Positions 7,279 through 25,200 of a DNA stretch of 64,000 bases are shown in pieces. Made by a program: the position numbers and the translations under genes. Positions within the stretch are counted from its first letter, which is position 1. Each line of letters opens with the position of its first letter. Below the pieces are notes generated by a model. The model searched no databases, was not told the origin of the DNA, and was given only the letters and a program-made list of their open reading frames with translations. The stretch covers positions 32,001-96,000 of IMG/VR virus record IMGVR_UViG_3300005563_000031; one strand, 5' to 3'. Origin of the DNA: a virus.

Positions 7279-7566
7279 AGTTGGTAGCGATAGCGTTTGT
7301 GATTGTGAACCTGAGTCGCGGTTGAAGAAACCGTAATTTGAGATTTACCAACACTGCGTTAGCGCGAGGCGCGAAATAGCCCTAAAAACATACTATCTCG
7401 GTAGACGCGGGTTCGAATCCCGTCCCCCGCCCCATATCACTATGCGGGGGTGGTGCAGCGGTTTAGCACAACTGGGTTAACTGTGATTGCGACAAACAAG
7501 GTAATTTCGCGGGTGCCCCCAGGGGCGGGTTCGTAACTACGGTAAATGATACGGATTCCGCCCCTC
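7279..7566 (+). ncRNA. structured RNA containing a circularly permuted tRNA-like domain (YrlA/Y-RNA-like)
   Basis: T-arm GCGGG-TTCGAAT-CCCGT (7407-7423), acceptor 3' CCCCCGC+C+CCA (7424-7434), 9-nt linker, acceptor 5' GCGGGGG (7444-7450), D-arm GTGC/GCAC, anticodon-stem halves CTCGGT/ACTGGG, outer stem CGCGAAAT/ATTTCGCG. Confidence 0.75.
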
Positions 7567-10691: not shown

Positions 10692-11927
10692 ATGGAAAAA
10701 TGGGAACGGGAGGCTAAAACCTTCGCAAAATGGTGGCACACGGGACAGTACCGTAAGTATACCAACGACACCGTGCCGTACTACCTGCACTGCGGTGCGG
10801 TTGCGCGGTTGCTGAAAACACACGTACCTAGCGCGACGCGCGAAATGATTATCGCAGCGTGGTTACACGACACGCTCGAGGACACGGATGTTACGGCGCT
10901 TGAAATCTACAATACCTTTGGCTCCGTGGTGCTACAGCACGTCGAGGATCTTACCGAGCGTAAGTACCCCGGCTGCGGTCGACGCGAACGCAAAGAGCGG
11001 GAACTCGCACGACTTTCGCAAGTCTCGATTGGATCTAAAACTATTAAGTTAGCTGATCTACTCGACAATGCGAAGGATATACTCGAGAAGGACAAGGATT
11101 TTGCGGTGGTGTACTTGCGCGAGAAACGCGACTTACTTACCTACGCGCTAAAGGACGGCGATCCGGTGCTGTGGGCGTTGTGCGATCGCGTGGTGGAAGA
11201 CGGTTTAAAACTGTTGTCAGAATTTAAGGGGATTTCCAGCATGAAAACGGGCTTAACAGATATCACGTTAATTGTCGATAGATCCGGATCGATGAATAAG
11301 ATTTACAATGACACCATTGGCGGTCTCAATTCCTTTTTGCAATCGCAGCGCGCCGTGGAAGGCGAGGCAGTGTTTTCTGCCGTACAGTTTGATGATAAGT
11401 ACGAACAGGTCGTGACAGGCATCGACATACAACGCGTAACGAATTTCACGCCTGGGTATGACTTTATGCCACGCGGTTCCACAGCACTGTACGATGCGCT
11501 GGGACGCACTATTACGGCTATTGGCGCGCGGTTGAAGGCGTTGTCTGAAGAGGCGCGGCCTGAACGCGTAATGGTCGTGATCGTTACCGACGGCAAAGAG
11601 AACGCGAGCGAGGAATTTACCAAGAAGCAGGTGTTTGATATGATTAAACACCAAACCGACGTGTACAAGTGGGACTTTACCTACATCGGCGCAAACCAGG
11701 ATTCCATGCAGTCTGGAGCTGCTATCGGCATCGCTGCGAGCAAAACGATGGATTACTCGCATACAGGTGTAGGCGCACGGGGTGCCTTCGCTGCTGCATC
11801 TAACTACACGCACAGTTTCCGGGCCGCCCCAACCCGCGAGGCTGCGAGTGCGAGTGCATTCACGGCCGAGGATCGCAAAGCGGCGGCGGGCGATAGTGCG
11901 GGACTTAAGCCGGACAGTACCGTTTAA
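10692..11927 (+). CDS. RelA/SpoT-type HD hydrolase (small alarmone hydrolase-like) in frame with a vWA domain
   Basis: H.GQYRK...PY..H, AAWLHDTLEDT, IKLADLLDN; vWA MIDAS DRSGSM, PRGSTALYDA, VIVTDGKEN. Confidence 0.85.
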   Translation: MEKWEREAKTFAKWWHTGQYRKYTNDTVPYYLHCGAVARLLKTHVPSATREMIIAAWLHDTLEDTDVTALEIYNTFGSVVLQHVEDLTERKYPGCGRRERKERELARLSQVSIGSKTIKLADLLDNAKDILEKDKDFAVVYLREKRDLLTYALKDGDPVLWALCDRVVEDGLKLLSEFKGISSMKTGLTDITLIVDRSGSMNKIYNDTIGGLNSFLQSQRAVEGEAVFSAVQFDDKYEQVVTGIDIQRVTNFTPGYDFMPRGSTALYDALGRTITAIGARLKALSEEARPERVMVVIVTDGKENASEEFTKKQVFDMIKHQTDVYKWDFTYIGANQDSMQSGAAIGIAASKTMDYSHTGVGARGAFAAASNYTHSFRAAPTREAASASAFTAEDRKAAAGDSAGLKPDSTV

Positions 11928-11969
11928 TAACACCCGCACTCCTCCTCTCTTATCATAGAAGGGTAACGT

Positions 11970-13475
11970 ATGGTCACTGCAGTAAAGGTACAAGGTAATG
12001 CGCTCGTAGACGGCGACGGTACGCCGCTACAGCTGCGCGGTGTAAACTGTTCGGCGCTCGAATTCGTGGCGATCCAATACGCCTCCGCATCCCCCAAAAC
12101 CAACTTCGATAACTGGGGCGGCCAAAAGCCGAATCTCAGCGCTGTCAAGTCCTGGGGCGCCAACAGCATCCGTGTGCCTCTCAACGAGCAAAGTTACCTT
12201 GGACTCGTATGCACTGACCAAACCGGTGCGCAACTTTTGGCAGATCCGGGCGGTAACTACCGCAGTGCTGTGAAAGCGATCGTGGACAGTGCGACCGCAT
12301 TGGGGTTGGCGGTGATTTTGGACTTGCACAAGAACACCGCCAACTTCACACCGGCCGGCGCCAGTACGGCAGTGCCTGGCTTGTCCAACACGAGCGGACA
12401 GTCGGAGATGGCGGATGCCGACCACAGCTACGACTTCTGGTCGGCGGTTGCGAACGATTACAAAACCTACCCCAACGTGCTGTTTGACCTCTTTAACGAG
12501 CCGCATATTGACAATTTCCAAAATCCCAGCACTTTCTCACCAAACCCCGGCACTAGCTTGCCGGCAGGACTGAACACCGAAGCGGCATGGGCGTGGGCTG
12601 TGTGGCGCGACGGGGGCACCGGTAAGCTGATCTACGCCAACAACCAGACCTACTCGCAGAACTATGCCTCTGCCGGCATGCAGGCCATGTTGGATGCCGT
12701 GCGCGCGACCGGCGCCACGAACATATGCATGGCGGGCGGGGTATCGTGGGCGCAAGACCTTGCGTTGTGGACGCAGTTTTGTCCCATCGATCCGATCAAA
12801 CAACTGGCGTGCTCGTGGCATGCGTACCCGAGCCAACAGAACCCCGCCTACCCGAGCTATCCGCCGGGCACGTGGTGGGGGCAGCCGAAGGGCTCGTTTG
12901 ATTACGCAGCCGACATTCTCGCCGCCGGCTACCCGATCATTATCGGCGAAACAGGAGACGATCCCAACAACCAACTCATGCCTGTACTGTTGCCGTGGGC
13001 GGATGCGCACAAAGTATCTGTTACCGCGTGGACATGGGATGTGGGGTGGGGGAATGATTCACTCATTGCGGATGCGAGTGGCACACCTGTAAACACCGGC
13101 ATCGCGTACAAACAATGGCTTCAAACGCACACCTCCGGAGGTACTCCTGTGTCCACTACCCAAAATGCAGCCCTGTCGATCGCCTACAACAGCGTGGCCG
13201 GTTTCCCGGCGGGCAGCGTCGTTGACCACATCAACGTTGCACTTACGGCGAAAAACAACACCGCCAACACCCCGCCTGCCAAAAACGTCGCGCCCGGCAC
13301 TGCCAATGTGACCTTCACAGGACTCGCACCGGACACGTACCAAATTGCCGTGCAAGCAATGCCAGCGACGGGCAGCGGGTTTGGCACGCCGGCAAGCGGC
13401 TCGATTACCATTACGCAAGTCAACACCACTATCTCGTTGTCGCTGCCAAGCACTGTCACTGCTACACAGCCGTAA
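11970..13475 (+). CDS. glycoside hydrolase family 5 (cellulase-like) with C-terminal Ig/FN3-like domain
   Basis: LRGVN, WGANSIRVPL, VILDLH, catalytic FNEP and IIGETG, AWTW. Confidence 0.9.
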   Translation: MVTAVKVQGNALVDGDGTPLQLRGVNCSALEFVAIQYASASPKTNFDNWGGQKPNLSAVKSWGANSIRVPLNEQSYLGLVCTDQTGAQLLADPGGNYRSAVKAIVDSATALGLAVILDLHKNTANFTPAGASTAVPGLSNTSGQSEMADADHSYDFWSAVANDYKTYPNVLFDLFNEPHIDNFQNPSTFSPNPGTSLPAGLNTEAAWAWAVWRDGGTGKLIYANNQTYSQNYASAGMQAMLDAVRATGATNICMAGGVSWAQDLALWTQFCPIDPIKQLACSWHAYPSQQNPAYPSYPPGTWWGQPKGSFDYAADILAAGYPIIIGETGDDPNNQLMPVLLPWADAHKVSVTAWTWDVGWGNDSLIADASGTPVNTGIAYKQWLQTHTSGGTPVSTTQNAALSIAYNSVAGFPAGSVVDHINVALTAKNNTANTPPAKNVAPGTANVTFTGLAPDTYQIAVQAMPATGSGFGTPASGSITITQVNTTISLSLPSTVTATQP

Positions 13476-13759: not shown

Positions 13760-13835
13760 TGGATCACCCGGATGGAATCGAACCATCATGTACGATGTTC
13801 AAAGCATCGTTGGGATACCAGTAACCCACAGGTGA
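13760..13835 (-). tRNA. tRNA-Gln(TTG)
   Basis: anticodon arm CGATG-CTTTGAA-CATCG; encoded CCA. Confidence 0.9.
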
Positions 13836-13974
13836 AAAATGAGTCGATTTGAACGTGTGGTGATCCAACTGCTGATCATTATCGCTAATAGGGTAGCGCG
13901 CAGTGCATCACCTGCAGACAGAATAAACATCGATCACGACGGGTGGCCGATGTACGGCGACAAACCCTTTTAAA

Positions 13975-14050
13975 TGGATCAGGCGGTTGGAATCGAACCA
14001 ACGTGAACTGCGTTCAGAGCGCAGTGGGGATGCCAGCAACCCACACCTGA
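13975..14050 (-). tRNA. tRNA-Gln(CTG)
   Basis: CTGCG-CTCTGAA-CGCAG; CCA. Confidence 0.9.
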
Positions 14051-14227
14051 GAATTTCTATGACAACAGAGAAAACTGCTATTTGCGGAGCGATCCGGCCT
14101 CAAGAAAAGCCTACGTGCCGACGTTCGCAAAAGATTGGCGGGCCGCGCTATGTTTGTGGACGCGAACCGAAGCACGAGGGGCCGTGCGGCTGCTGGCGGT
14201 TTTTGTCGCAGGTCGCTGCTGCGAAAT

Positions 14228-14299
14228 TGGCGGGAAGGTAAGGAGTTGCACCCTACTTTTGGGGTTTGGAGTCCCATAGCTCGCTCCGAGCACCGACCC
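14228..14299 (-). tRNA. tRNA-Trp(CCA), atypical
   Basis: loop CTCCAAA; two acceptor mismatches; TGCAA T-loop; CCA. Confidence 0.7.
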
Positions 14300-14307
14300 G
14301 TGAAACT

Positions 14308-14670
14308 ATGCCTATCTACGGTAGTCTAACACTACGCGCACGAATACTGGCAAACGATGAGCCGGCGTGGTTGAAAAAGCACGCACGCCGCGATTACATC
14401 GTGCAAGTACATCTTGCCACACCACGCTGGTACTCGCGTAAAGAAGTCGTACGGCTTAAGCAGAAGGCGCACGAGCTGTCGAAAGCGAAACGACGCAAGT
14501 ACGTACTGGACCACATCATCCCCCTCACACACAAGCGCGTATGCGGTTTAAACGTACACCACAATATGCAAATCATCGATGCCGGCACGAATGCGCGCAA
14601 ATCCAATCACTGGTGCGAGTGGCACGGGGAGTTATTCGCGGAACCTGAGCAGTTTCCACTGTTTCGATAG
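14308..14670 (+). CDS. HNH endonuclease, antisense within tRNA array
   Basis: LDHIIPL...VCGLNVHHNMQII...NARKSN. Confidence 0.85.
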   Translation: MPIYGSLTLRARILANDEPAWLKKHARRDYIVQVHLATPRWYSRKEVVRLKQKAHELSKAKRRKYVLDHIIPLTHKRVCGLNVHHNMQIIDAGTNARKSNHWCEWHGELFAEPEQFPLFR

Positions 14671-14758
14671 CGTGCCGGGCGCCGCGTGCCCATCGGTGCT
14701 AGGAAGTTTTGTGGCCCGCAAGCGGGGAAGATTCCTACGACGGGACGCCCATGCACTC

Positions 14759-14847
14759 TGGCGGAAGGCAGTGAACTCGAATCACAAACGCTTATCGCGT
14801 TCCATCCGCTTTCCAAGCGGCTCGAGGCCCTGCCTCGTTTACCTTCC
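14759..14847 (-). tRNA. tRNA-Ser(GGA)
   Basis: loop TTGGAAA, long V-arm, G73-CCA. Confidence 0.85.
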
Positions 14848-14852
14848 AATGT

Positions 14853-14941
14853 TGGCGGATACCGTAGGAGTCGAACCTACACGGCCCGTTAAGACCCTAA
14901 CACCGCTTTCAAGGCGGGCGAGCGCGCCAGTGCGGGTATCC
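14853..14941 (-). tRNA. tRNA-Ser(TGA), reduced D-arm
   Basis: loop CTTGAAA, long V-arm, G73-CCA. Confidence 0.75.
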
Positions 14942-15015
14942 GAAAAGTAGGTGAGGCCCGGTGCAGCGGATAGCACTTGGACAGGTGCGTCCACACCGGG
15001 GGTCACCGAGCAGCT

Positions 15016-15059
15016 GAACCGGAACTGCGCTTGTTCCTTACTGGCCTTTCGGCCGGTTC
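15016..15059 (-). ncRNA. three-way-junction motif, copy 1
   Basis: GAACC-GGCCGAAAGGCC-AGTAA-[GGAAC/GTTCC]-GGTTC. Confidence 0.6.
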
Positions 15060-15172
15060 GTTTGCGAGTATAAGGGCACTTGCGCGCGGGTGCAGTCGCT
15101 TACTGCACCTTGCGTCACGACCAACGCGCAGCAGGAGCGACACTGCCGCCATGGCGTCTAGCAAGTGTTTTC

Positions 15173-15260
15173 TGGCGGATGGCAATGGAGTCGAACCACA
15201 AGCGCTTGCGCACTCCATCTGTTTTCGAGGCAGTGCTGACACCGTGTCAGTTTACCATCC
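15173..15260 (-). tRNA. tRNA-Ser(CGA)
   Basis: loop CTCGAAA, V-arm, CCA. Confidence 0.85.
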
Positions 15261-15373
15261 GTAAAATCTAAGGCGGTTAGGTTTAAGTAGGGGGCAAACC
15301 CTTACCCGGCGCCGGGCCCAGCATCACCGCAAGCCCCTACCAGTCTTGACCAGCAAGTACCGGTAGGAATGTT

Positions 15374-15462
15374 TGGCGGAAAGCAGTGTACTCGAAACAC
15401 ACACCCGTTAGGATGCCCTCTGTTTAGCAAACAGGTACGAGCGCCTGCCCGTTTTACTTTCC
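15374..15462 (-). tRNA. tRNA-Ser(GCT)
   Basis: loop TTGCTAA, V-arm, CCA. Confidence 0.85.
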
Positions 15463-15468
15463 GTAAAT

Positions 15469-15547
15469 TGGTCCCCGCAGCAGCTTGGGGAGCTGCGACC
15501 GTCCGGTTAAAAGCCGGATGCTCTTCACCCGTGTGAGCTATACGAGG
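15469..15547 (-). tRNA. tRNA-Lys(TTT), non-canonical 6-nt T-loop
   Basis: TCCGG-CTTTTAA-CCGGA; T-arm GCAGC-TCCCAA-GCTGC; CCA. Confidence 0.75.
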
Positions 15548-15553
15548 AATGTT

Positions 15554-15629
15554 TGGTGCTCAGTGATGGAGTTGAACCATCTATCTCCGCGTTACGAATG
15601 CGGCGCATCGCCGGCAATGCTTACCGAGC
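15554..15629 (-). tRNA. tRNA-Thr(CGT)
   Basis: loop TTCGTAA; CCA. Confidence 0.85.
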
Positions 15630-15743
15630 TTATCGGAATAAGAAGACTGTACCAAACATGCTCGCACCATCGGCAGCAAAACACCGCGCGCCATCCTCGT
15701 AGTCGTTTGCCGCACTGTCTGCAGTTCATGTTGGAATTATACA

Positions 15744-15818
15744 TGGAGCCCCACGTTGGACTTGCGCCAACCCTCGCTACTTACAAGGCAGCTACACCGC
15801 TATCTGTGTTTGTAGGGC
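15744..15818 (-). tRNA. tRNA-Thr(TGT)
   Basis: GCTGC-CTTGTAA-GTAGC; CCA. Confidence 0.85.
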
Positions 15819-15883
15819 GAAAAGTACCGCCGAGCCCCTGTGCACACGCAGGTATTGGAAAGGCCCGGCGGATTTTGCAATTA

Positions 15884-15924
15884 GAACCAGACGCTGGCGC
15901 CTTTACTGGCCTTTCGGCCGGTTC
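15884..15924 (-). ncRNA. three-way-junction motif, copy 2
   Basis: 22 nt identical to copy 1; different but paired third stem AGGCG/CGTCT. Confidence 0.6.
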
Positions 15925-15943
15925 AATATGCATACTAACATGT

Positions 15944-16019
15944 TGGTGCCTCACCGACGAATTGCACGTCGCGCCTCATCTTTACCAAAGATGCGTTCCG
16001 CTCGCAGAACTTGAGAGGC
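15944..16019 (-). tRNA. tRNA-Thr(GGT)
   Basis: CATCT-TTGGTAA-AGATG; CCA. Confidence 0.85.
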
Positions 16020-16026
16020 AGTAAAT

Positions 16027-16100
16027 TGGCCTCCACGGTTGGACTCGAACCAACAACAGCAAGCCTTCGGAGGGCTCGCGCCGTATCCGACGGCGTGGAG
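16027..16100 (-). tRNA. tRNA-Arg(CCG), short D-arm
   Basis: loop CTCCGAA; CCA. Confidence 0.75.
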
Positions 16101-16107
16101 TTTAAAG

Positions 16108-16181
16108 TGGCACCCCCGGTTGGACTCGAACCAACATATCTGCCGTTCGTAGCGGCGGATCCTTGTTCCGAAGGCAGGGGC
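16108..16181 (-). tRNA. tRNA-Arg(ACG), short D-arm
   Basis: loop CTACGAA; CCA. Confidence 0.75.
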
Positions 16182-16266
16182 GTAGAAAACTGTCCGGCGG
16201 CAGTAGGCGCGAGTACGGCTTGCGCTTTCGCCGCGCACTTACCTTAAAGGCCTGCCGGTATGGCCG

Positions 16267-16437
16267 TTACACCGGTTTGTAAAGGGCTTGGTAGTAAAAT
16301 AAATGGTTTAGCGTGTCTGAACACAGGCGCTCGCACACTGCCACACCACCGGCCAATAACCACCCTTTGTTTAGGTAGTCAGTGACTTCGTTATTAAAGT
16401 ACTGCAAGTTTGTGTTACTTACTACGATGTATTTCAA
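16267..16437 (-). CDS. DUF1737-like small protein (56 aa, not in ORF track)
   Basis: TTG start; MKYIVVS...EVTDYLNKGWLLAGGVAV...YYQALYK. Confidence 0.7.
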   Translation of the reverse strand: MKYIVVSNTNLQYFNNEVTDYLNKGWLLAGGVAVCERLCSDTLNHLFYYQALYKPV

Positions 16438-16440
16438 TGT

Positions 16441-16536
16441 TGGTACTCGATGTAGGATTTGAACCTAACCCGTTGCAGCCAGTCCGACCGCTCTCGCACG
16501 CTTATAAGGCGCACCCGCACACCAGTGCTATCGAGT
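16441..16536 (-). tRNA. tRNA with TAT (Ile) anticodon and long variable arm
   Basis: TGCGC-CTTATAA-GCGTG; ~29-nt variable region; D tetraloop; A73-CCA. Confidence 0.7.
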
Positions 16537-16635
16537 ATTGCTCCTTTCCGAGGGGCGGCGGGCAGTGTAGTTAGCGACGCTACACTGAGTTGGGAGCTAC
16601 CCAACCAACCCCGCAGGCCCCTCGTACTTCTTTGT

Positions 16636-16710
16636 TGCGGTAGCTGGACTTGCACCAGCCTTAAATCGGCTTATGAAACCGTGGCGAAACTACCTTCGAC
16701 CATATACCGC
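16636..16710 (-). tRNA. tRNA-Met/Ile2(CAT), no encoded CCA
   Basis: loop TTCATAA; TGCAA T-loop; ends A-ACA. Confidence 0.65.
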
Positions 16711-16883
16711 AAAATTGTGCCCGCTTCGCTTTTCATTTCGTGGCAACGGACTAACACGCGGTGGCACCTATCAGCTCCCTACATGCATGCAACGCATTTG
16801 GGCGGGGATGGAGGCAGGGGTTAGGGAATGCGCATGTCTAGAATACGCCAATACACCTAAAGCCGTACCAACACCCCCATACC

Positions 16884-16958
16884 TGGTAGCGGGAGAGGGA
16901 TTCGAACCCCCGACCTTCTGGTTATGAGCCAGACGAGCTACCTCTGCTCTATCCCGCA
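16884..16958 (-). tRNA. initiator-like tRNA-fMet(CAT)
   Basis: 1:72 mismatch, TCTGG-CTCATAA-CCAGA, CCA. Confidence 0.85.
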
Positions 16959-17128
16959 TCAAACAATGCCGCGTTCCTCTTATATACCGGATACGCGGCC
17001 AACCCGGTATTGCAATTCGAGGAGGTGCTGTTGGGACTATCCTACAGGAGAACAAAGGACAGACCGGACTTATGGACGCTACGTGTCCCAACAGCACCGA
17101 CAACCGAACTATACAGCGAACTTTGAAT

Positions 17129-17203
17129 TGGTGCCTCGAGAAGTGCTCGCACCTTCGTATCTGGGTTTTCAGGCCAGCGCTACTCTGTCTCAGCTATCGA
17201 GGC
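17129..17203 (-). tRNA. tRNA-Phe(GAA)
   Basis: loop CTGAAAA; CCA. Confidence 0.8.
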
Positions 17204-17209
17204 AAATAC

Positions 17210-17295
17210 TGGTCCTCACGGCTGGACTTGCACCAGCACGCCGGTTAAGGCACAGCGTTCTCAACACTGCGTGTCTGCTGTTTCACCACGCGAGG
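17210..17295 (-). tRNA. tRNA-Leu(GAG)
   Basis: loop TTGAGAA; V-arm; A73-CCA. Confidence 0.85.
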
Positions 17296-17302
17296 AATAG
17301 TT

Positions 17303-17551
17303 TCAACGGATCGTTTCAATAGTCTTACCATCCTCGTTCATAATGTAGGCGACGTTGTAGGAACAGGACTGGTCCATTCCCACTGTTACCTCTGTAGTTT
17401 CACCCGGTGCGTCGCCGCACTGTATAACCGCGCACAAGTTTTCCTTGTACGTTACGTGGACGGCTTTCGCCTCACGCACTGATATCGCTTCTGTGTATGA
17501 GGGCTTAGCGGGCGCTTCTGGCCCGTACTTATAGAATTTTACTGTCAACAT
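17303..17551 (-). CDS. hypothetical protein inside tRNA array
   Basis: 82 aa; C-terminal AYIMNEDGKTIETI phage motif. Confidence 0.7.
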   Translation of the reverse strand: MLTVKFYKYGPEAPAKPSYTEAISVREAKAVHVTYKENLCAVIQCGDAPGETTEVTVGMDQSCSYNVAYIMNEDGKTIETIR

Positions 17552-17581
17552 AGTCTACTCGTCCTACTACTGCTAAGAAAC

Positions 17582-17665
17582 TGGTACCTCTGGTGAGAGT
17601 TGCACTCACACACCTTGCGGCGCCGGAATTTGAAGCCGGTGCGTCTGCTGTTCCGCCACAGAGGC
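17582..17665 (-). tRNA. tRNA-Leu(CAA)
   Basis: loop TTCAAAT; V-arm; CCA. Confidence 0.85.
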
Positions 17666-17671
17666 AAAAGT

Positions 17672-17748
17672 TGGTATCCCCGGCGGGAGTTGCACCCGCA
17701 GTTGAACGGATTTTAAGTCCGCTGTGTCTGCTATTCCACCACGAGGAT
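17672..17748 (-). tRNA. tRNA-Leu(TAA), short variable loop
   Basis: GCGGA-CTTAAAA-TCCGT; CCA. Confidence 0.8.
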
Positions 17749-17751
17749 GAA

Positions 17752-17822
17752 TGGGCACCCACGGTTGGAGTCGAACCAACGCTGGTAGCTTAGGAGGCCA
17801 CTTTCGTTCCGCCGACGTGGGT
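17752..17822 (-). tRNA. tRNA-Arg(CCT), short D-arm
   Basis: loop CTCCTAA; ends G-CCCA. Confidence 0.7.
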
Positions 17823-17823
17823 A

Positions 17824-17985
17824 TCACAGATGAACAGTACCTGCGACTACGGTAATGGCGAGGATAAGGCAGATCAGCAGCACCGCAATGTGCAGCAGTG
17901 GGCCCGGTTTGCCTATCATCGACATGATCGTGATGATCGCAGCGGCGATCAAAAATACGAGAACGAGAATTGCAGCAGCACTCAT
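17824..17985 (-). CDS. small two-TM membrane protein (53 aa)
   Basis: AAGGAG RBS; MSAAAILVLVFLIAAAII... Confidence 0.65.
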   Translation of the reverse strand: MSAAAILVLVFLIAAAIITIMSMIGKPGPLLHIAVLLICLILAITVVAGTVHL

Positions 17986-18043
17986 GTTGGAAACTCCTTT
18001 TCTAACACGGGTGGGCGGTAGCAAGTAACGCTCCCGACACAGC

Positions 18044-18116
18044 TGGCACCCTCGGTTGGAGTCGAACCAACAGTCTGCGGCTTAGAAGGCGCGCTACCGA
18101 TCCGGCCGGCGAGGGC
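18044..18116 (-). tRNA. tRNA-Arg(TCT), short D-arm
   Basis: loop CTTCTAA; CCA. Confidence 0.7.
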
Positions 18117-18122
18117 GAAGGG

Positions 18123-18194
18123 TGGAGCGGAAAATGGGAGTCGAACCCATCAGCGGCGTCGTTGGCAACGATACCTCACACCATGTGCATCCGC
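18123..18194 (-). tRNA. tRNA-Gly(GCC), short D-arm
   Basis: loop TTGCCAA; U73-CCA. Confidence 0.75.
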
Positions 18195-18202
18195 ATGTTC
18201 AG

Positions 18203-18340
18203 TTCTTTCGTCCGTCCCACTGTTGCATTATGGGCAACCACCCGAGAGGATTTGCCGCTACCTCTGACATCTCCCACTTAAAGGAGGGAGCGCTCTGGTG
18301 CTCTGAGCTACGAGTGTTATCAACAGTCGCCACGAAAGAA
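18203..18340 (-). ncRNA. tRNA-like RNA with enlarged anticodon and T loops on an extended stem
   Basis: core 18239-18316; outer stems TTCTTTCGT/ACGAAAGAA and ACTGTTG/CAACAGT; no CCA. Confidence 0.6.
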
Positions 18341-18342
18341 TT

Positions 18343-18418
18343 TGGTGCATGCTGTTGGATTCGAACCAACTGCCTCCCGGTTATCAGCCGGGTGCGCATC
18401 CGTATGTGCCTCGCATGC
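18343..18418 (-). tRNA. tRNA-Ile(GAT)
   Basis: CCCGG-CTGATAA-CCGGG; CCA. Confidence 0.9.
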
Positions 18419-18535
18419 GAAATAGATGTGGGTATTTGTCCGGCACCCACCGAGCCGTGCGGCTATTGCAGCGTAACCGCGACACCTCCAGCGCTTGCAT
18501 TGGCACTGGACCGGGCCGTTAAAGGTGTAGTGAAG

Positions 18536-18623
18536 TAGGATGTTTGGATTTGCACCAAGACCTCTGTTATTCCGCACGTCTGCGGATTCGACAGTGCTCT
18601 TCTATGACTGAGCTAACACCCTA
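18536..18623 (-). ncRNA. anticodon-less tRNA-like RNA
   Basis: acceptor, D-arm GCTC/GAGC and T-arm present; anticodon loop replaced by internal loop plus TCCGCA-GACG-TGCGGA; no CCA. Confidence 0.65.
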
Positions 18624-18645
18624 CATATTCACTATACCTTGAAGT

Positions 18646-18720
18646 TGGTCGGAGTAGTAGGAATCGAACCTACCTTGTCGTGCTCCCAAAGCACGCGATC
18701 AGCCACTGACCCACACTCCG
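18646..18720 (-). tRNA. tRNA-Pro(TGG)
   Basis: CGTGC-TTTGGGA-GCACG; CCA. Confidence 0.9.
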
Positions 18721-18777
18721 ATGGCGAGTGTCTCTCCGCTCCTGTCACGCCTGGATCGCCCGGCGTTCGGCATTGGC

Positions 18778-18855
18778 TGGTGCGGGTAGCAGGATTTGAA
18801 CCTACGGCCCCGTGCGCCCGAGGCACGTGCTCTGACCAGACTGAGCTATACCCAC
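18778..18855 (-). tRNA. tRNA-Pro(CGG)
   Basis: CGTGC-CTCGGGC-GCACG; CCA. Confidence 0.85.
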
Positions 18856-18865
18856 ATGTTAGAAT

Positions 18866-18942
18866 TGGAGCACCCGGCCGGACTTGCACCGACGATTTTA
18901 ACGCTTTGCAGGCGCCTGCATTTGCTGCTCTGCCACGGGTGC
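18866..18942 (-). tRNA. tRNA-Cys(GCA)
   Basis: loop CTGCAAA; U73-CCA. Confidence 0.85.
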
Positions 18943-18946
18943 GTGT

Positions 18947-19020
18947 TGGAGGGTCGTAATGGAGTCGAACCATTTATGGAGTCCGGTCACAGCGGAGTCC
19001 GGCTACCGAGCCAACGGCCC
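18947..19020 (-). tRNA. tRNA-His(GTG), U73 and no G-1
   Basis: loop CTGTGAC; CCA. Confidence 0.75.
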
Positions 19021-19116
19021 ATTGTTTGTGCCTTCCCGCGCACGGCTTGCGGCCGGTCGATCGCGTGGCGCGAGTCACGGCGCACTCCGAGGTGCGCTGG
19101 GCTTGATCGACAAAGT

Positions 19117-19204
19117 TGGTACCTCTGGAGGGAATTGCACCCCCATGCCGTTTTACGGGCGCTGCGGTCTGAACGCAGTGTGTCTTCTGTTTCACCACAG
19201 AGGC
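19117..19204 (-). tRNA. tRNA-Leu(CAG)
   Basis: CTGCG-TTCAGAC-CGCAG; V-arm; CCA. Confidence 0.85.
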
Positions 19205-19346
19205 AAAATGAGCATTAGGACAGTGCGCTGGTGCCGCGTTGGCATTCGCGCAAACCTCCGTTAGACAGCGCTATCTAACATCATCGATCCTGCTTTATAC
19301 AGCTTGCATAGCCCCACTCGATATGGGACACGGCACTGTCCTAATT

Positions 19347-19421
19347 TGGTAGACCGTACGGGATTCGAACCCGCCTAACATGCTTGAAAGGCACGTTGCA
19401 TCACCGAGACGCATACGGTCC
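19347..19421 (-). tRNA. tRNA-Glu(TTC)
   Basis: loop CTTTCAA; CCA. Confidence 0.8.
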
Positions 19422-19596
19422 GTAAAATTTAAGTGGCTCTGGCGCATAGGGGTACTCGTGTGAGGCGCATGCGCCACTGGCGGAGACAGGTACCTGGCAC
19501 GACTTACGCACCGTTGCTGCGTCGTAACCTGCGCTGGCTTGCCAGGCGAGAGCGGTCTGTGCGGCAGAGCTACTAAGTATACCGCACGACAAACAC

Positions 19597-19674
19597 TGGT
19601 AGACGTGACGAGACTCTAACTCGTTAGGCTACGGTTGAGAACCGCACTGCGCGAGACACTTTGCATTCACGTCC
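19597..19674 (-). tRNA. tRNA-Glu(CTC)
   Basis: TGCGG-TTCTCAA-CCGTA; CCA. Confidence 0.8.
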
Positions 19675-19682
19675 ATAAAAAT

Positions 19683-19754
19683 TGGTGGAGCTGTCGGGAG
19701 TTGAACCCGCAGGGTTTCCTTGCAAGGGAGACCCGTTGCCCGCAACACAACCCC
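19683..19754 (-). tRNA. tRNA-Ala(TGC), short D-arm
   Basis: G3:U70, loop CTTGCAA, A73-CCA. Confidence 0.8.
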
Positions 19755-19856
19755 GTGGTTCTTTGGTCTAGCCCAACATCTGACGGCTGGGCAGGCGCAC
19801 ATAACAGCAACGTCACCGGTAATTAACTGCTACATGTTGATCGCTTTTCGACTTAC

Positions 19857-19932
19857 TGGTAGGCCGCCAGGGATTCGAACCCTGGACCAACTGGTTAAGA
19901 GCCAGCTGCTCTTGCCGCTGAGCTAGCGACCT
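19857..19932 (-). tRNA. tRNA-Lys(CTT)
   Basis: GCTGG-CTCTTAA-CCAGT; canonical; CCA. Confidence 0.92.
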
Positions 19933-20030
19933 ATAAAGTTACGCTTCCGGTCATCTGCGCCGAATATCCCGTGGGCTAGTACCCACATGCTACAGGACAT
20001 GGACGGGCGTACAGAGCCGGACTTGCGTTC

Positions 20031-20121
20031 TGGTGCGTCGCGGATGGAATCGAACCTCGTGCCCTAAAGGGACCTGGTTTACAGCCAGGCGAGCGGCCAC
20101 CACTCCTTACTTGCGCAACGC
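20031..20121 (-). tRNA. tRNA-Tyr(GTA)
   Basis: CCTGG-CTGTAAA-CCAGG; V-arm; CCA. Confidence 0.85.
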
Positions 20122-20126
20122 ATGGT

Positions 20127-20198
20127 TGGTACCCGATGTGAGGATTGAACTCACTCCACCAACTTTGTAGGAGTCGGCGCCGTCCCAACGGTCCGGGC
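20127..20198 (-). tRNA. tRNA-Val(TAC), short D-arm, C33
   Basis: CGACT-CCTACAA-AGTTG; CCA. Confidence 0.7.
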
Positions 20199-20432
20199 AT
20201 AAACAAAAAGGATGACAATAGGCGTGCATCAGACGCCTCGTTTTACGTCACGGCTCGCGCCGCTTGGCTAGCTGCTCGCAGGTGGTCCGTAGACCACCAT
20301 TTTCGTCACCGCTTCTACCAGCGGCTCCTCGAACGTCGTTAGGCCGACTACCCAGCCAATTCTCGTATCCTCAAAAATCGTTGACGACCTATTTTTTATC
20401 GTGGTCAGCCGTCAGTGTTTTCCAGTCCTTTT

Positions 20433-20504
20433 TGGCGCCTCCAACGGGACTCGAACCCGTCACCCACTCGATAGACAGTCGAGTTTCACCCCAGGTGTAG
20501 AGGC
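20433..20504 (-). tRNA. tRNA-Asp(GTC), short D-arm
   Basis: CTCGA-CTGTCTA-TCGAG; G73-CCA. Confidence 0.75.
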
Positions 20505-20520
20505 AGGTTCTAACACTTAG

Positions 20521-20594
20521 CTGTAGGCCTGGGGCTCGAACCCAGCGCATCTCCGTTAACAGCGGAGCCTACACGCCCGGTGCAGTTGCCTACA
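20521..20594 (-). tRNA. tRNA-Asn(GTT), no CCA, flanks extend the acceptor stem
   Basis: CTCCG-CTGTTAA-CGGAG; G73; flanks TCTAACACTT/AAGTGTTAGA (20509-20607). Confidence 0.8.
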
Positions 20595-20609
20595 GCAAAG
20601 TGTTAGATT

Positions 20610-20683
20610 TGGAGCGGACGGTGGGAATCAAACCCACCTCATTGCGTTGGAAGCGCAAGGCCCAGTCACTAGACCACGCCCGC
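20610..20683 (-). tRNA. tRNA-Gly(TCC), first gene of array
   Basis: TTGCG-CTTCCAA-CGCAA; U73-CCA. Confidence 0.9.
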
Positions 20684-22238: not shown

Positions 22239-25200
22239 CGAATTACAAACTCTATATCTACGACCACCGAGCCGTAATTAATTGTTTGACTGCCGGAGGA
22301 CGGTACTACAATGGCAGTGCCGCCTGTGATGAAATTATAAAAGCCCGCTTTATACGTAAAGGGTAACATGGCTTGCAAAGTAATGGATTGGACAGCGCCG
22401 CTGCCGGTGGGAACGACTTGCAGGGGTGTAAAGAACGCGCTTTGGGCGACAGCGGGATCATTGCCTACAATGGGCGATCCGGTCGGGGAGTTAGACCACT
22501 GCCGCAGCCCCCACACACCCATTTTTATATCACCAAACGTACCTGCTACCTGCGCCGCGTTCAGTGTCGCGGTAATGATCATCGTACAGTCGTAATTGGG
22601 AGCGGGTGTTGCGTTGAGATACGAGAAGTACCACGTGCCCGCCGGATTCGTTACACCGGTGGTGGTGGTGGAAACGCCACCCGAAGCAATGAGCGTGGCC
22701 GCGTTATTGCGAATTTGTACGGTATCTTGGAAGAGTGCATCCGGTGTAGGACCGTAGTCCACGGAGTTAATAGCTGCGCCTACAGCGTAGAAACTCGTAT
22801 CCAAATACACTGCCGAGCCGGTCGGTACGCCCAGTGACGCACCGGTCGCTGAATCTAGTACCGATCCATTTTTCAAAAATCTGAAGGTAGTCCCGTCCCA
22901 CGTCACCCCCAGCACATCGGTTGTGAGGTAAGCAGCGCCCGCCGTAACGCCTGTTCCATTTTTGAAAATGTAAAGGGCACCGCTTACTGTACAATCAATC
23001 GCCGCTGTAATTGTGCTGTAACCAGAATCAAGTCCCGGCCTTACCCCCAATCCCACCATTACGTCCGTTAACGCACTTACCTTCCAAAACACGTGCGCTG
23101 TAGGATATCCCTCAAGCGAATACACATCCGCATTCCAACCCGCCGTCGTGTTGGCAAGGTTTTTAGCAAATGTGACCCCATTTACTGACGTGCCGTTGCG
23201 GGCAACAAAAGGAGTGGGGGTGGCTGGATTCAACAATCCAAAATAAACGTTGTCGAATACGAAGTTGGGCGAGTTCAACGAACAATCAAAATACAGCGAC
23301 TTACCGGGAGCCGGTATTGTTCGCCAATTAATGTTGTCGGCAAAGTAGGTAACAAATTTACCGTCGTACCGTATCTCGAGTAGCGTGTCGGTAGTAGCGG
23401 TAATGGGAATCGTATCAACCAATCCCCCATTTTCATAGATTTGGTAAAATCCACCCGACACGTACCACGCGTAATCCAGTGACGCGAAACTCTCATCGGT
23501 AAGGGGGTCTGAATTTAACCCAAACATGCCGTACAACATAGGCGTGCGCGTAACCACCCGAGCAACACAACCGCCCGAAAGCGCATCCTCGCTATAGCAA
23601 TCTGAATCCCATGCGGCGGCGGCGTTTAACTTCTTGTAAATTTGATTGCCCGTGCATACCGCGCTGTTGCGCGCCACTAACGGCAAAGCGCCCGGTGCTT
23701 CGAGCACACCTGCGTTCTGCCCTTGGAAAAAGCCCTGGTATGCAACTTCCTCTGACAGCGAGCGTACGCCTCCACCAAACAAGTTGAATGAAACAAACTT
23801 AGCCCAGAACGGCAGCCCCGCGTAACCGGGATCAAAAGCGAGCCGGAAAATGTCCTGGTCAATAACGGCAAAATTGCTGCCCGCCGGATGCGCAACAGTG
23901 TTCGTACTACCGTATTTACCACGCCGAAGGTATGTGAGCACAAACGCGTTGTCACCTAACGCCTGGGCCGTCTGATAGGAAATAATTTCTCCATCCACGA
24001 TGCACGGTGTTAGAATATTGTCCGCATCCGCCCGTGTACCTGAAGTCATTGTTAGAGGGCTAGACTGAAGTAATTGCACCGACACGCTGTTGGCGGTATC
24101 GGGGTCATTCCCCGCTGGTAGCAACTGCGTCGTCGTGCCATAACGACTTGGCGCATCCACCACACCCACACGCCAATACGTGATATTGTCGAGCGACAAG
24201 TACACCCCGCACCCGCCCCATTCGCCCCCCGCACCGCCTACCGCAATCCCCAGCTCATACCCGTTTGAAGCGGGCGCCGCGAGCGAGGGCGGGAATGTGA
24301 ACATGTAGGGTTTAGCAACAGGTCCCGGATCACCTAAGAAGTTCTGCACGTAGGCTTGTGCAAATTGATTGTTGTAAAGGGGCGCGGCGGCCGGACCAAC
24401 AACCATTTCCTCCGCGATAATTTCAATCGTGTCATCAGGATTGTCGGTAACGTCCGTAATGCGCACGAGCTGATTAACAATGCCCATCCGGCTATCGTTG
24501 ATCGCTATAAGGTCCATCGGCTCAAGCAAACAAAAATCCGCCCGCAACTTGAAAGCAAACGTATTGCGGATGTACAGATTGCGGTTACACATCAACGTGG
24601 CAATTTGATGCGCAACTGCTCGGTTCTTAATCAAATGCAGCGAAACAGCAGACTGCACCCGCAAGCCGTTTGTTGCGACGTCCAACTCGTCGCGATACTC
24701 CGCAATGGCCGTGTTGTATTGGTTTGTGCGATCAAGGAATTCTATCCGCCAACAGTTAAAGGTCTGATTGGCAGGGATAATAGACACCGTAACGGGCGCC
24801 GAGGTGCCGGTGTTAGGATCTATCGCATAGTCACTGTCGTCAATCGAGTAAAGTGGTGTTAGATTTGGAGTATAGGTAACTCCATTACCCGTAATCGCCG
24901 TATCACCATATGGAACAAATCGCAAGCCTGTACCCGGCGACCACACGCAGTTGCTATTAGTCGCTTGCAGTACTTCGTTGATAAAGTCCTGCGCGGCACG
25001 CTGCTGCTGTTCACAGGCTGAGAAAAAGAAGTTGTTGGCTGTGCAGTAGGTTTGGAACTGATCACTATCTACCGGAGCAAGATAAGGGAAATTCGCCCCG
25101 TGATTGGGATCTGTGCAATAGTCAACAAGAAACACCGCCGGATGCGCATCCATTGTGCTTGTGTAAAGGCACATACCGGATACTTCAAACGTGTAATTCG

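Follow-up and report, generated by a model that had tools for sequence, protein, structure and literature searches.

An anticodon-less tRNA-shaped gene with an 8/4 scaffold and a closed elongated arm in a phage tRNA operon

Two explanations are currently given for phage tRNA genes, namely codon supply and the replacement of host tRNAs that defence nucleases destroy. Moreover, phages T4 (rnaC and rnaD) and T5 encode stable non-tRNA RNAs among their tRNA genes, which are processed together with the tRNAs. None of these small stable RNAs is a complete cloverleaf in which the anticodon loop has been replaced, whereas the RNA gene described here, referred to as the unit, is.

Several RNAs are known that use the tRNA shape without decoding. 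YrlA/Y RNA (RF02553; Chen et al., 2014, PMC4201824) is, like the unit, a non-decoding mimic of the tRNA body. However, in YrlA the acceptor end is closed, the RNA exits by the anticodon side and is bound by Ro, whereas the unit is open at the acceptor end and closed on the anticodon side. An identity with YrlA was rejected due to this opposite topology, the lack of a match to RF02553 at the unit and the lack of a TROVE gene in the phage genome. The tRNA-like mascRNA/MEN-beta RNAs (RF01684) and the tRNA-like domain of tmRNA, which tRNA enzymes such as RNase P recognise, resemble the unit in not decoding; they are, however, eukaryotic or dedicated to ribosome rescue, have other architectures and are not matched by Rfam or ARAGORN at the unit. 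A tmRNA was rejected in particular, as ARAGORN with -m reported none in the whole genome and no Rfam tmRNA match was obtained at the unit.

For the scaffold of the unit there is a published precedent. In Mukai et al. (2017, PMC5389517), (8/4) tRNA-Ser and tRNA-His are placed in tRNA clusters of alpha-proteobacterial phages. The (8/4) tRNAs, allo-tRNAs and "irregular tRNAs", as characterised there, share with the unit a 12-bp acceptor/T stack split into 8 + 4 bp and a 2-nt linker ahead of the D stem, and the phage representatives additionally share the location in a phage cluster together with an (8/4) tRNA-Ser (PMC5389517). According to the same paper some irregular tRNAs are charged yet unused in translation and others are uncharged. 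The (8/4) tRNAs keep an anticodon as described there, whereas the unit has none; it also differs from tRNA-Ser and the allo-tRNAs by its short variable loop and by the lack of an encoded CCA. Compared to the canonical tRNA (RF00005), the unit is alike in the order of the cloverleaf, the D stem, the T arm, the core residues and the location in a tRNA operon, but it lacks the 7-nt loop and U33, is built as 8/4 instead of 7/5, has a G at position 55 and has no G18-G19. Non-decoding tRNA-like RNAs and the 8/4 scaffold are thus already known. Apparently new is a full cloverleaf in which a stalk replaces the anticodon and which is located in a phage tRNA operon; full-text literature searches returned no description of an anticodon-less cloverleaf RNA in a phage tRNA array.

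The unit and its operon

The phage is represented by a virus record of 105,784 bp (IMGVR_UViG_3300005563_000031), rated 100% complete by CheckV. All coordinates refer to the window, i.e., the whole stretch of 64,000 nt that was analysed (positions 32,001 to 96,000 of the record). An alpha-proteobacterial host is likely because the relatives of the portal protein belong to Brevundimonas phages and to prophages of alpha-proteobacterial MAGs (e.g., Roseiarcus, Acetobacteraceae and Rhodospirillales). The features are as follows, those of the unit in the order 5' to 3':

13760..20683, minus strand: tRNA operon, ~7 kb, about 38 units with an anticodon loop (ARAGORN, Rfam and by-eye parsing)
18536..18623, minus strand: whole unit (sequence, fold z = -3.2, cloverleaf energy, pair probabilities)
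18616..18623, minus strand: acceptor 5' strand UAGGGUGU (8/8 pairs with 18536-18543, one of them G-U)
18596..18613, minus strand: D arm, GCUC / 10-nt loop AGUCAUAGAA / GAGC (U8-A9 before it, A26 after it)
18564..18594, minus strand: closed elongated arm, CUGU, CGAA, UCCGCA, GACG, UGCGGA, AUA, ACAG (-11.4 kcal/mol)
18559..18563, minus strand: variable loop AGGUC, class I, 5 nt (sequence)
18544..18558, minus strand: T arm, UUGG / UGCAAAU / CCAA, 4-bp stem (sequence and scripted pair count)
18536..18543, minus strand: acceptor 3' strand ACAUCCUA (C-UUC next, no CCA)

The sequence reading gives an anticodon-less tRNA-shaped gene of 88 nt on the minus strand (18623-18536), which runs UAGGGUGU-UA-GCUC-AGUCAUAGAA-GAGC-A-CUGU-CGAA-UCCGCA-GACG in its first half and UGCGGA-AUA-ACAG-AGGUC-UUGG-UGCAAAU-CCAA-ACAUCCUA, then C-UUCAC, in its second half. 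A first-pass annotation had described this RNA as an anticodon-less tRNA in an 8/4 fold without CCA, composed of an 8-bp acceptor, a T arm, an internal loop and a 6-bp hairpin with a GACG loop; all of these parts are present on the minus strand at the coordinates given, and the fold is borne out by the sequence and by a scripted pair count, which yielded 8/8 acceptor and 4/4 T-stem pairs for the 8/4 split compared to 7/7 and 4/5 for a 7/5 split. With the 7/5 split the T stem would contain a C-A mismatch and the D stem would be preceded by three instead of two nucleotides, and the canonical U8-A9 linker before G10 is obtained in the 8/4 reading only. Altogether 26 of the 26 designed pairs are formed, including one G-U. 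Several decoding neighbours are less clean than the unit; as an example, the neighbouring tRNA-His forms 6/7 acceptor pairs. A ninth acceptor pair is possible between G18624 and C18535.

The arm in the place of the anticodon arm consists of a 4-bp lower stem (CUGU/ACAG), a 4x3 internal loop (CGAA/AUA) and a 6-bp helix (UCCGCA/UGCGGA) capped by GACG, so that 23 nt separate the strands of the lower stem. The 3' half of the arm repeats the 5' half in inverted orientation, albeit imperfectly. The GACG cap lies outside the specially stable tetraloops.

The core of the tRNA body is present in the unit with U8, A9, A14, G15, A21, A26, G45, G46, C48, U54, C56 and A58 and with the pairs G10-C25, C13-G22 and G53-C61. 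Using the textbook tertiary pairs of tRNA-Phe, the contacts U8-A14-A21, A9 with U12-A23, G45 with G10-C25, G46 with C13-G22, G15-C48 and U54-A58 were read off the sequence as available. The D-arm had been called normal in the first-pass annotation, which holds for its stem and core residues but not for its loop, where the G18-G19 pair is missing.

The unusual elements of the unit recur in the same array. The 8/4 split is found in three of the four tRNA-Ser genes of the phage and is absent from the other units tested. Nine other units have a UGC-type T loop with G at position 55, namely four tRNA-Leu, tRNA-Cys, Thr-GGU, Trp, the CAU tRNA and Phe, the latter with the T loop UGCGAGC. Almost all array units with a UGC-type T loop have a D loop without G18-G19, and by eye several of these D loops contain an AG-rich motif (CAGAAGA, UAGCAGA), as does the D loop of the unit (..UAGAAGA). 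Judged by these neighbours, the G55 T loop and the GG-less D loop of the unit are the house style of this phage and not defects.

The loop-bearing units of the operon serve all 20 amino acids. The 37 other loop-bearing units were collected with ARAGORN at lowered stringency and by parsing five orphan T arms by eye, the latter giving Asp-GUC, Val-UAC, Trp-CCA, the CAU tRNA and a tRNA-Gly(GCC) whose anticodon stem is 7 bp long; one more unit of the operon has a 6-nt loop. ARAGORN and Rfam each overlook part of the operon. The unit follows tRNA-Pro(UGG) at a distance of 21 nt and lies within the 227-nt non-tRNA stretch that extends from this gene to tRNA-Ile(GAU). Neither a sigma-70-like promoter-like site nor a minus-strand terminator-like site was detected near the unit, and therefore its co-transcription with the operon is the simplest assumption. 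A 3' CCA is encoded in 35/37 loop-bearing units and is missing from the unit and from a second irregular unit at 18.2 kb, both of which have no normal anticodon loop. With four CCA-less among 39 units, the chance that both irregular ones fall into this group is 6/741, i.e., about 0.008.

The cloverleaf of this 18.2-kb unit has one loop of 10 nt and one of 11 nt and lacks CCA. A further element at 7.4 kb consists of a T arm, an acceptor-like stem with a closing loop and a D arm and shares this topology with the tRNA-like domain of YrlA; it scores only 21 bits against the Rfam YrlA model, whose gathering score is 69, and the phage has no Ro/TROVE gene. Together with the unit, these two elements had been proposed to be three topologically different tRNA-elbow mimics. 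Three different look-alikes of the tRNA elbow are indeed found in the sequence; as functional mimics they are putative.

In RNAfold the unit reaches a minimum free energy (MFE) of -28.8 kcal/mol with z = -3.2, and 0/200 shuffles were as stable. The cloverleaf lies at MFE + 1.6 kcal/mol, and the pair probabilities of the long arm are 0.92-1.0. The structure is clearly beyond chance and is located on the coding strand of the tRNA array. The ~115-117-nt stretch downstream of the unit (z = -0.46) and the stretch with the 18.2-kb unit (z about -0.45) behave like shuffles. The unit is a discrete structured island between unstructured flanks; that it is a part of a larger structured spacer RNA was rejected due to the z value of about -0.46 of the flanks.

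Decoding capacity and look-alikes in other phages

According to its sequence the unit cannot decode. Its arm has no 7-nt loop, no U33 and no 5-bp anticodon stem. The Rfam tRNA model RF00005 gave no match to the unit at the gathering threshold (29 bits) or at E <= 10 with lax filters, and none of the other Rfam families matched it. A residual decoding function, be it via an alternative fold or via the removal of a short intervening hairpin, is very improbable. It could be based on the label tRNA-Gly(UCC) that ARAGORN assigns to the unit, at -ps90 only and via a forced fold, and on the tolerance of this phage for irregular tRNAs such as the tRNA-Gly(GCC) with its 7-bp anticodon stem. However, the arm of the Gly-UCC fold amounts to -2.0 kcal/mol compared to -11.4 kcal/mol for the closed arm, it has A33, and the fold furthermore contains a mismatched stem and an almost unpaired variable arm, for which reasons it was rejected; a regular tRNA-Gly(UCC) is already encoded in the operon at 20610-20683, and RF00005 stays silent on the unit even at E <= 10. 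Removal of a hairpin fares no better. In agreement with the earlier claim that the unit is too short for a self-splicing intron, the excess of 14-16 nt is much smaller than a group I intron, and the 4x3 geometry of the internal loop is not the 3-4-3 of a bulge-helix-bulge intron, so that both intron types were rejected; the intron mode of ARAGORN returned the same forced fold and no intron. Moreover, any contiguous deletion of 14 nt from the 21-nt stretch past position 31 never creates a 7-nt loop with U33. Two non-tRNA readings of the hairpin were rejected as well: a terminator, as there is no U tract, and a repeated palindromic element, as the 16-nt hairpin is present in a single copy in the window.

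The unit is unique within the genome and within the collections searched. In a BLAST search of the region against 50,697 phage records only the neighbouring ordinary tRNAs were matched, no related sequence came up when the hairpin, T arm and D arm of the unit were scanned for exact matches, and a scan for its lower stem with any arm length returned five loci, all unrelated. Searches of IMG/VR, JGI metagenomes, GTDB genomes and INPHARED with tail protein, portal and PolA as queries revealed no close relatives of the phage; in the DNA of these collections the portal is matched at 58-61% identity at best. Four IMG/VR records with portal relatives were checked: three of them, with lengths of 47-64 kb, have a completeness rating of 96-100%, and tRNA genes are absent from all four. 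The prophage-like portal relatives from alpha-proteobacterial MAGs are no more than 48% identical, and INPHARED phages reach at most 41% for the portal and 29% for PolA, i.e., the phage has no cultured relative. Closer portal proteins are P0001 with 96% identity (25-kb contig) and P0002 with 77% identity (104-kb contig). Within the array, no close paralogue of the unit was detected beyond generic tRNA similarity, and an origin as a recent duplicate of a neighbouring tRNA was rejected on this basis. The T-arm scan did not reveal orphan T arms outside recognisable units, therefore the long spacers of the operon do not appear as an obvious graveyard of decaying tRNAs.

Look-alikes of the unit are encoded by other phages. 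A scan of IMG/VR with a pattern that required a D arm of class I and a T loop as well as 8-21 extra nucleotides resulted in 86 loci. About two thirds of these are decoding tRNAs with unusually long variable arms, and about 25-30 are class I tRNA bodies with closed elongated anticodon arms. As in the unit, the closed-arm analogues (among them L264, L281, L252/L284 and L240/L266) combine a class I body with an arm in which a lower stem of 4-5 bp leads via an internal loop into a capped hairpin; most of them are 7/5 and, unlike the unit, well scored by RF00005, and the arm has no sequence homology to that of the unit. In the homologous pairs L252/L284, L240/L266 and L236/L253 the body is near-identical and the hairpin is replaced yet still paired. 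In two virus records of 101 kb and 61 kb, both 100% complete according to IMG/VR/CheckV, a closed-arm gene is one of only two matches to the tRNA model. A covariance model of the unit (R1) aligned L264 (39.5 bits) and L281 (36.1 bits) end to end, which shows a common design and not homology with the unit; the closed-arm analogues of other phages are not demonstrably homologous to it. The class is provisionally defined by a tRNA body that is intact and an anticodon arm that is elongated and closed; the unit shows both, and in other phages the class looks real.

Possible roles of the unit and their meaning

It is quite possible, if short of probable, that the unit is a maintained non-decoding tRNA mimic in the phage operon that is released by tRNA processing. 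The unit would be transcribed together with its operon neighbours, RNase P would cut its 5' end and exonucleases would trim its 3' end; such a release may be expected because both steps need only the acceptor/T half, which is perfect here. The released RNA would be an L with a normal elbow whose "anticodon" limb is several base pairs longer and blunt. It would pair with no codon and would probably be unused in translation even if a host CCA-adding enzyme completes its 3' end; without CCA it would not be an immediate substrate of a synthetase. The most likely action would be competitive binding at a tRNA-binding host factor: acting as a decoy or sponge, the RNA would occupy a host protein that binds the tRNA body and would present to it neither a cleavable nor a decodable anticodon loop. 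Candidate targets are a host tRNA-targeting defence or toxin nuclease and a processing or modification enzyme. Matches to PTH2 (PF01981), a CCA-adding enzyme, Ro (TROVE), RtcB and RNA ligase were absent from the 105.8-kb phage genome, therefore any partner would be a host protein, and a link to phage-encoded tRNA-repair or tRNA-handling enzymes was rejected.

In favour of the maintained mimic count the intact body, the strong preference for the closed arm, the house-style loops, the absence of a fresh duplicate and the unstructured flanks, and furthermore the analogue pairs that keep the body while their hairpins change and yet pair. Against it count that no phage-encoded partner is obvious and that GACG is not specially stable. 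Moreover, since the two halves of the arm are nearly inverse to each other, a single template-switch mutation could have created the hairpin recently and without selection. This leads to the alternative that the unit is a dead gene, i.e., a former class I 8/4 tRNA that lost its loop by a palindromic insertion or template switch, lost its CCA and is still transcribed and processed without function, which is possible, albeit on the doubtful side. Such a gene would be in line with the uniqueness of the unit in the genome and in the collections searched, with the fact that nothing points to conservation, with arm halves that are near-inverse copies obtainable in one mutational step and with the other units already serving all 20 amino acids. 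However, neutral decay should also reach the stems, whereas the 26 pairs, the core residues and the match to the phage-specific D and T loops are intact. A parent is not recognisable among the 38 neighbours, there are no orphan T arms in the spacers and no visible graveyard, and CUU in place of CCA differs in two of the three bases, assuming that the ancestor encoded CCA. Closed-arm units elsewhere, moreover, stay closed while the sequence of the hairpin changes. The mimic is only slightly favoured over the dead tRNA gene.

The unit could also be a processing module only, providing an extra site for RNase P and 3' trimming that cuts the 227-nt spacer and helps the operon transcript to mature or to decay; the RNA set free would itself have no role. 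The tRNA punctuation of mitochondrial transcripts and mascRNA are models for such a function. The location within a long inter-tRNA spacer, which is shared with the 18.2-kb irregular unit, the perfect acceptor/T half as the part that RNase P recognises and the absence of both CCA and anticodon would fit. The explanation is nevertheless improbable, as the adjoining ~115-nt spacer has no special structure that could be freed (z = -0.46), the other spacers of 140-700 nt in the operon have no such unit, and this purpose would already be served by a minimal acceptor/T hairpin, so that the intact D arm and the long perfect arm as well as the core residues would be superfluous.

Two extensions of the mimic reading go further. 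It is rather unlikely that the unit is a member of a widespread, uncatalogued class of phage RNAs, in which tRNA bodies had their decoding loop purposely swapped for a closed stalk to become uncleavable and undecodable competitors; the targets would then be host proteins that grip the tRNA body, such as defence nucleases, toxins, and modification or export-type factors. Furthermore, the additional pair G18624-C18535 could turn the unit into a 9/4 RNA with a 13-bp stack like that of tRNA-Sec, which could keep it off EF-Tu.

For phage biology the locus has several implications. Several decoding tRNAs of the operon escape standard tRNA finders and Rfam, as do the 8/4 fold, T loops with G55 and D loops without GG; therefore, the tRNA inventories of uncultured phages are too low. 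Neither of the two explanations of phage tRNA genes fits a tRNA that has everything but decoding. If the unit is only a dead gene, it is a clean case of the inactivation of a tRNA gene in one step. If it is maintained, it would represent a third use of the tRNA shape in the conflict between phage and host, namely competition or decoy at tRNA-binding proteins, and such RNAs, being short, abundant and processable, would be easily tested.

Irregular tRNA genes of the array

Four additional tRNA genes of the minus-strand array (window 13760-20683) were parsed by eye starting from orphan T arms, and these were called neither by ARAGORN nor by Rfam:

20431-20507, minus: tRNA-Asp(GUC)
about 20125-20200, minus: tRNA-Val(UAC) with C33
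14226-14300, minus: tRNA-Trp(CCA) with two acceptor mismatches
16630-16712, minus: CAU tRNA that lacks CCA and whose D arm is enlarged

Once these are counted, the operon covers all 20 amino acids. At low stringency, ARAGORN also reports two units distant from the array, given here in coordinates of the whole virus record (G000:C1), i.e., a 98-nt "tRNA-???" with the 4-nt anticodon CGAG at 24794-24891 (+), which lies outside the window, and a lone tRNA-Gly(CCC) at 88304-88377 (+).

Three further genes of the array keep an anticodon loop and are irregular in structure:

16441-16536, minus: 96-nt unit whose variable arm is long and whose T stem has 4 bp; CCA is encoded, and the anticodon loop reads UAU
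18121-18195, minus: CCA-bearing tRNA-like gene that was not called, its D arm tiny and its anticodon stem 7 bp long
18044-18116, minus: tRNA with CCA, a C-C mismatch in the anticodon stem and the 6-nt loop UUCUAA

The first was labeled Leu-UAA by ARAGORN at low stringency; it has the appearance of a gene of the allo-tRNA(UAU) type, in which an isoleucine AUA anticodon sits on a serine-type body. In the second, the D arm (CACA/UGUG) closes on a 3-nt loop and the long stem on the canonical loop UUGCCAA; this gene is probably a tRNA-Gly(GCC) whose anticodon stem is elongated. The third, for which ARAGORN gives "?(Arg|Pyl)", may be an irregular tRNA-Arg(UCU).

None of the four tRNA-Ser genes was called by ARAGORN at default settings:

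14759-14847, 15173-15260 and 15374-15462, minus: tRNA-Ser(GGA), (CGA) and (GCU), 8/4 split
14853-14941, minus: tRNA-Ser(UGA), 7/5 split

In the three genes with the 8/4 split between acceptor and T stem, all positions are paired (8/8 and 4/4). This is the same split as in the (8/4) tRNA-Ser on record from alpha-proteobacterial phages (PMC5389517).

Shortly before the distal end of the operon lie two protein genes (10692-13475, plus), encoding a protein with a RelA/SpoT-type HD domain (HD_4) and a weak VWA match, and a GH5 cellulase-family protein.

tRNA look-alikes in this phage and in other viral contigs

Two other look-alikes are found in the phage:

18210-18318, minus: cloverleaf without CCA ("stalked RNA 1")
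7399-7473, plus: permuted element running from T arm through an acceptor-like stem with a 13-nt loop to D arm

The cloverleaf has the acceptor CACUCG/CGGGUG and the D arm UA-GCUC..GAGC; its "anticodon" loop (UCCUUUAAGU) measures 10 nt and its T loop 11 nt. The 147 nt around it are no more stably folded than shuffled sequences (z = -0.45). The permuted element gives weak matches to tmRNA families and a sub-threshold match to Rfam YrlA (RF02553; 21.2 bits, E 0.05). It shares its topology with the tRNA-like domain of YrlA; however, the phage has no Ro/TROVE gene.

Among the IMG/VR loci from the pattern scan (L numbers), closed-arm, anticodon-less look-alikes occur in unrelated viral contigs (L252/L284, L240/L266, L236/L253, L227/L237, L264, L281), and the homologous pairs retain the body and exchange the hairpin. 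The virus records containing L281 and L264 are rated 100% complete and hold only two tRNA-model matches each. At loci including L222, L233, L234, L238, L243, L248, L256, L261, L265, L285, L296 and L297, a variable arm of 14-19 nt (e.g., AGGCGAAUAGUAUAACGG) occurs alongside normal anticodon loops in many class I tRNAs of phages (Val-UAC, Pro-UGG, Asn-GUU, Ile-UAU, Thr-UGU, Gly-UCC). This oddity is recurrent and apparently conserved.

Two elbow types across the array

The array contains two elbow types. D loops containing GG are paired with UUCRANN T loops, and GG-less, AG-rich D loops are paired with UGCAANN (G55) T loops; the latter are carried by the four tRNA-Leu, tRNA-Cys, Thr-GGU, tRNA-Phe, the CAU tRNA and the anticodon-less 88-nt look-alike (18536-18623, minus). 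As a separate observation, a UGCAAAU T loop is also present in the tRNA-Gln of L163, a locus in an unrelated phage contig. The pairing rule between D loop and T loop within the array suggests that the G18-Psi55 contact is replaced in a covarying manner in the UGCAANN units.
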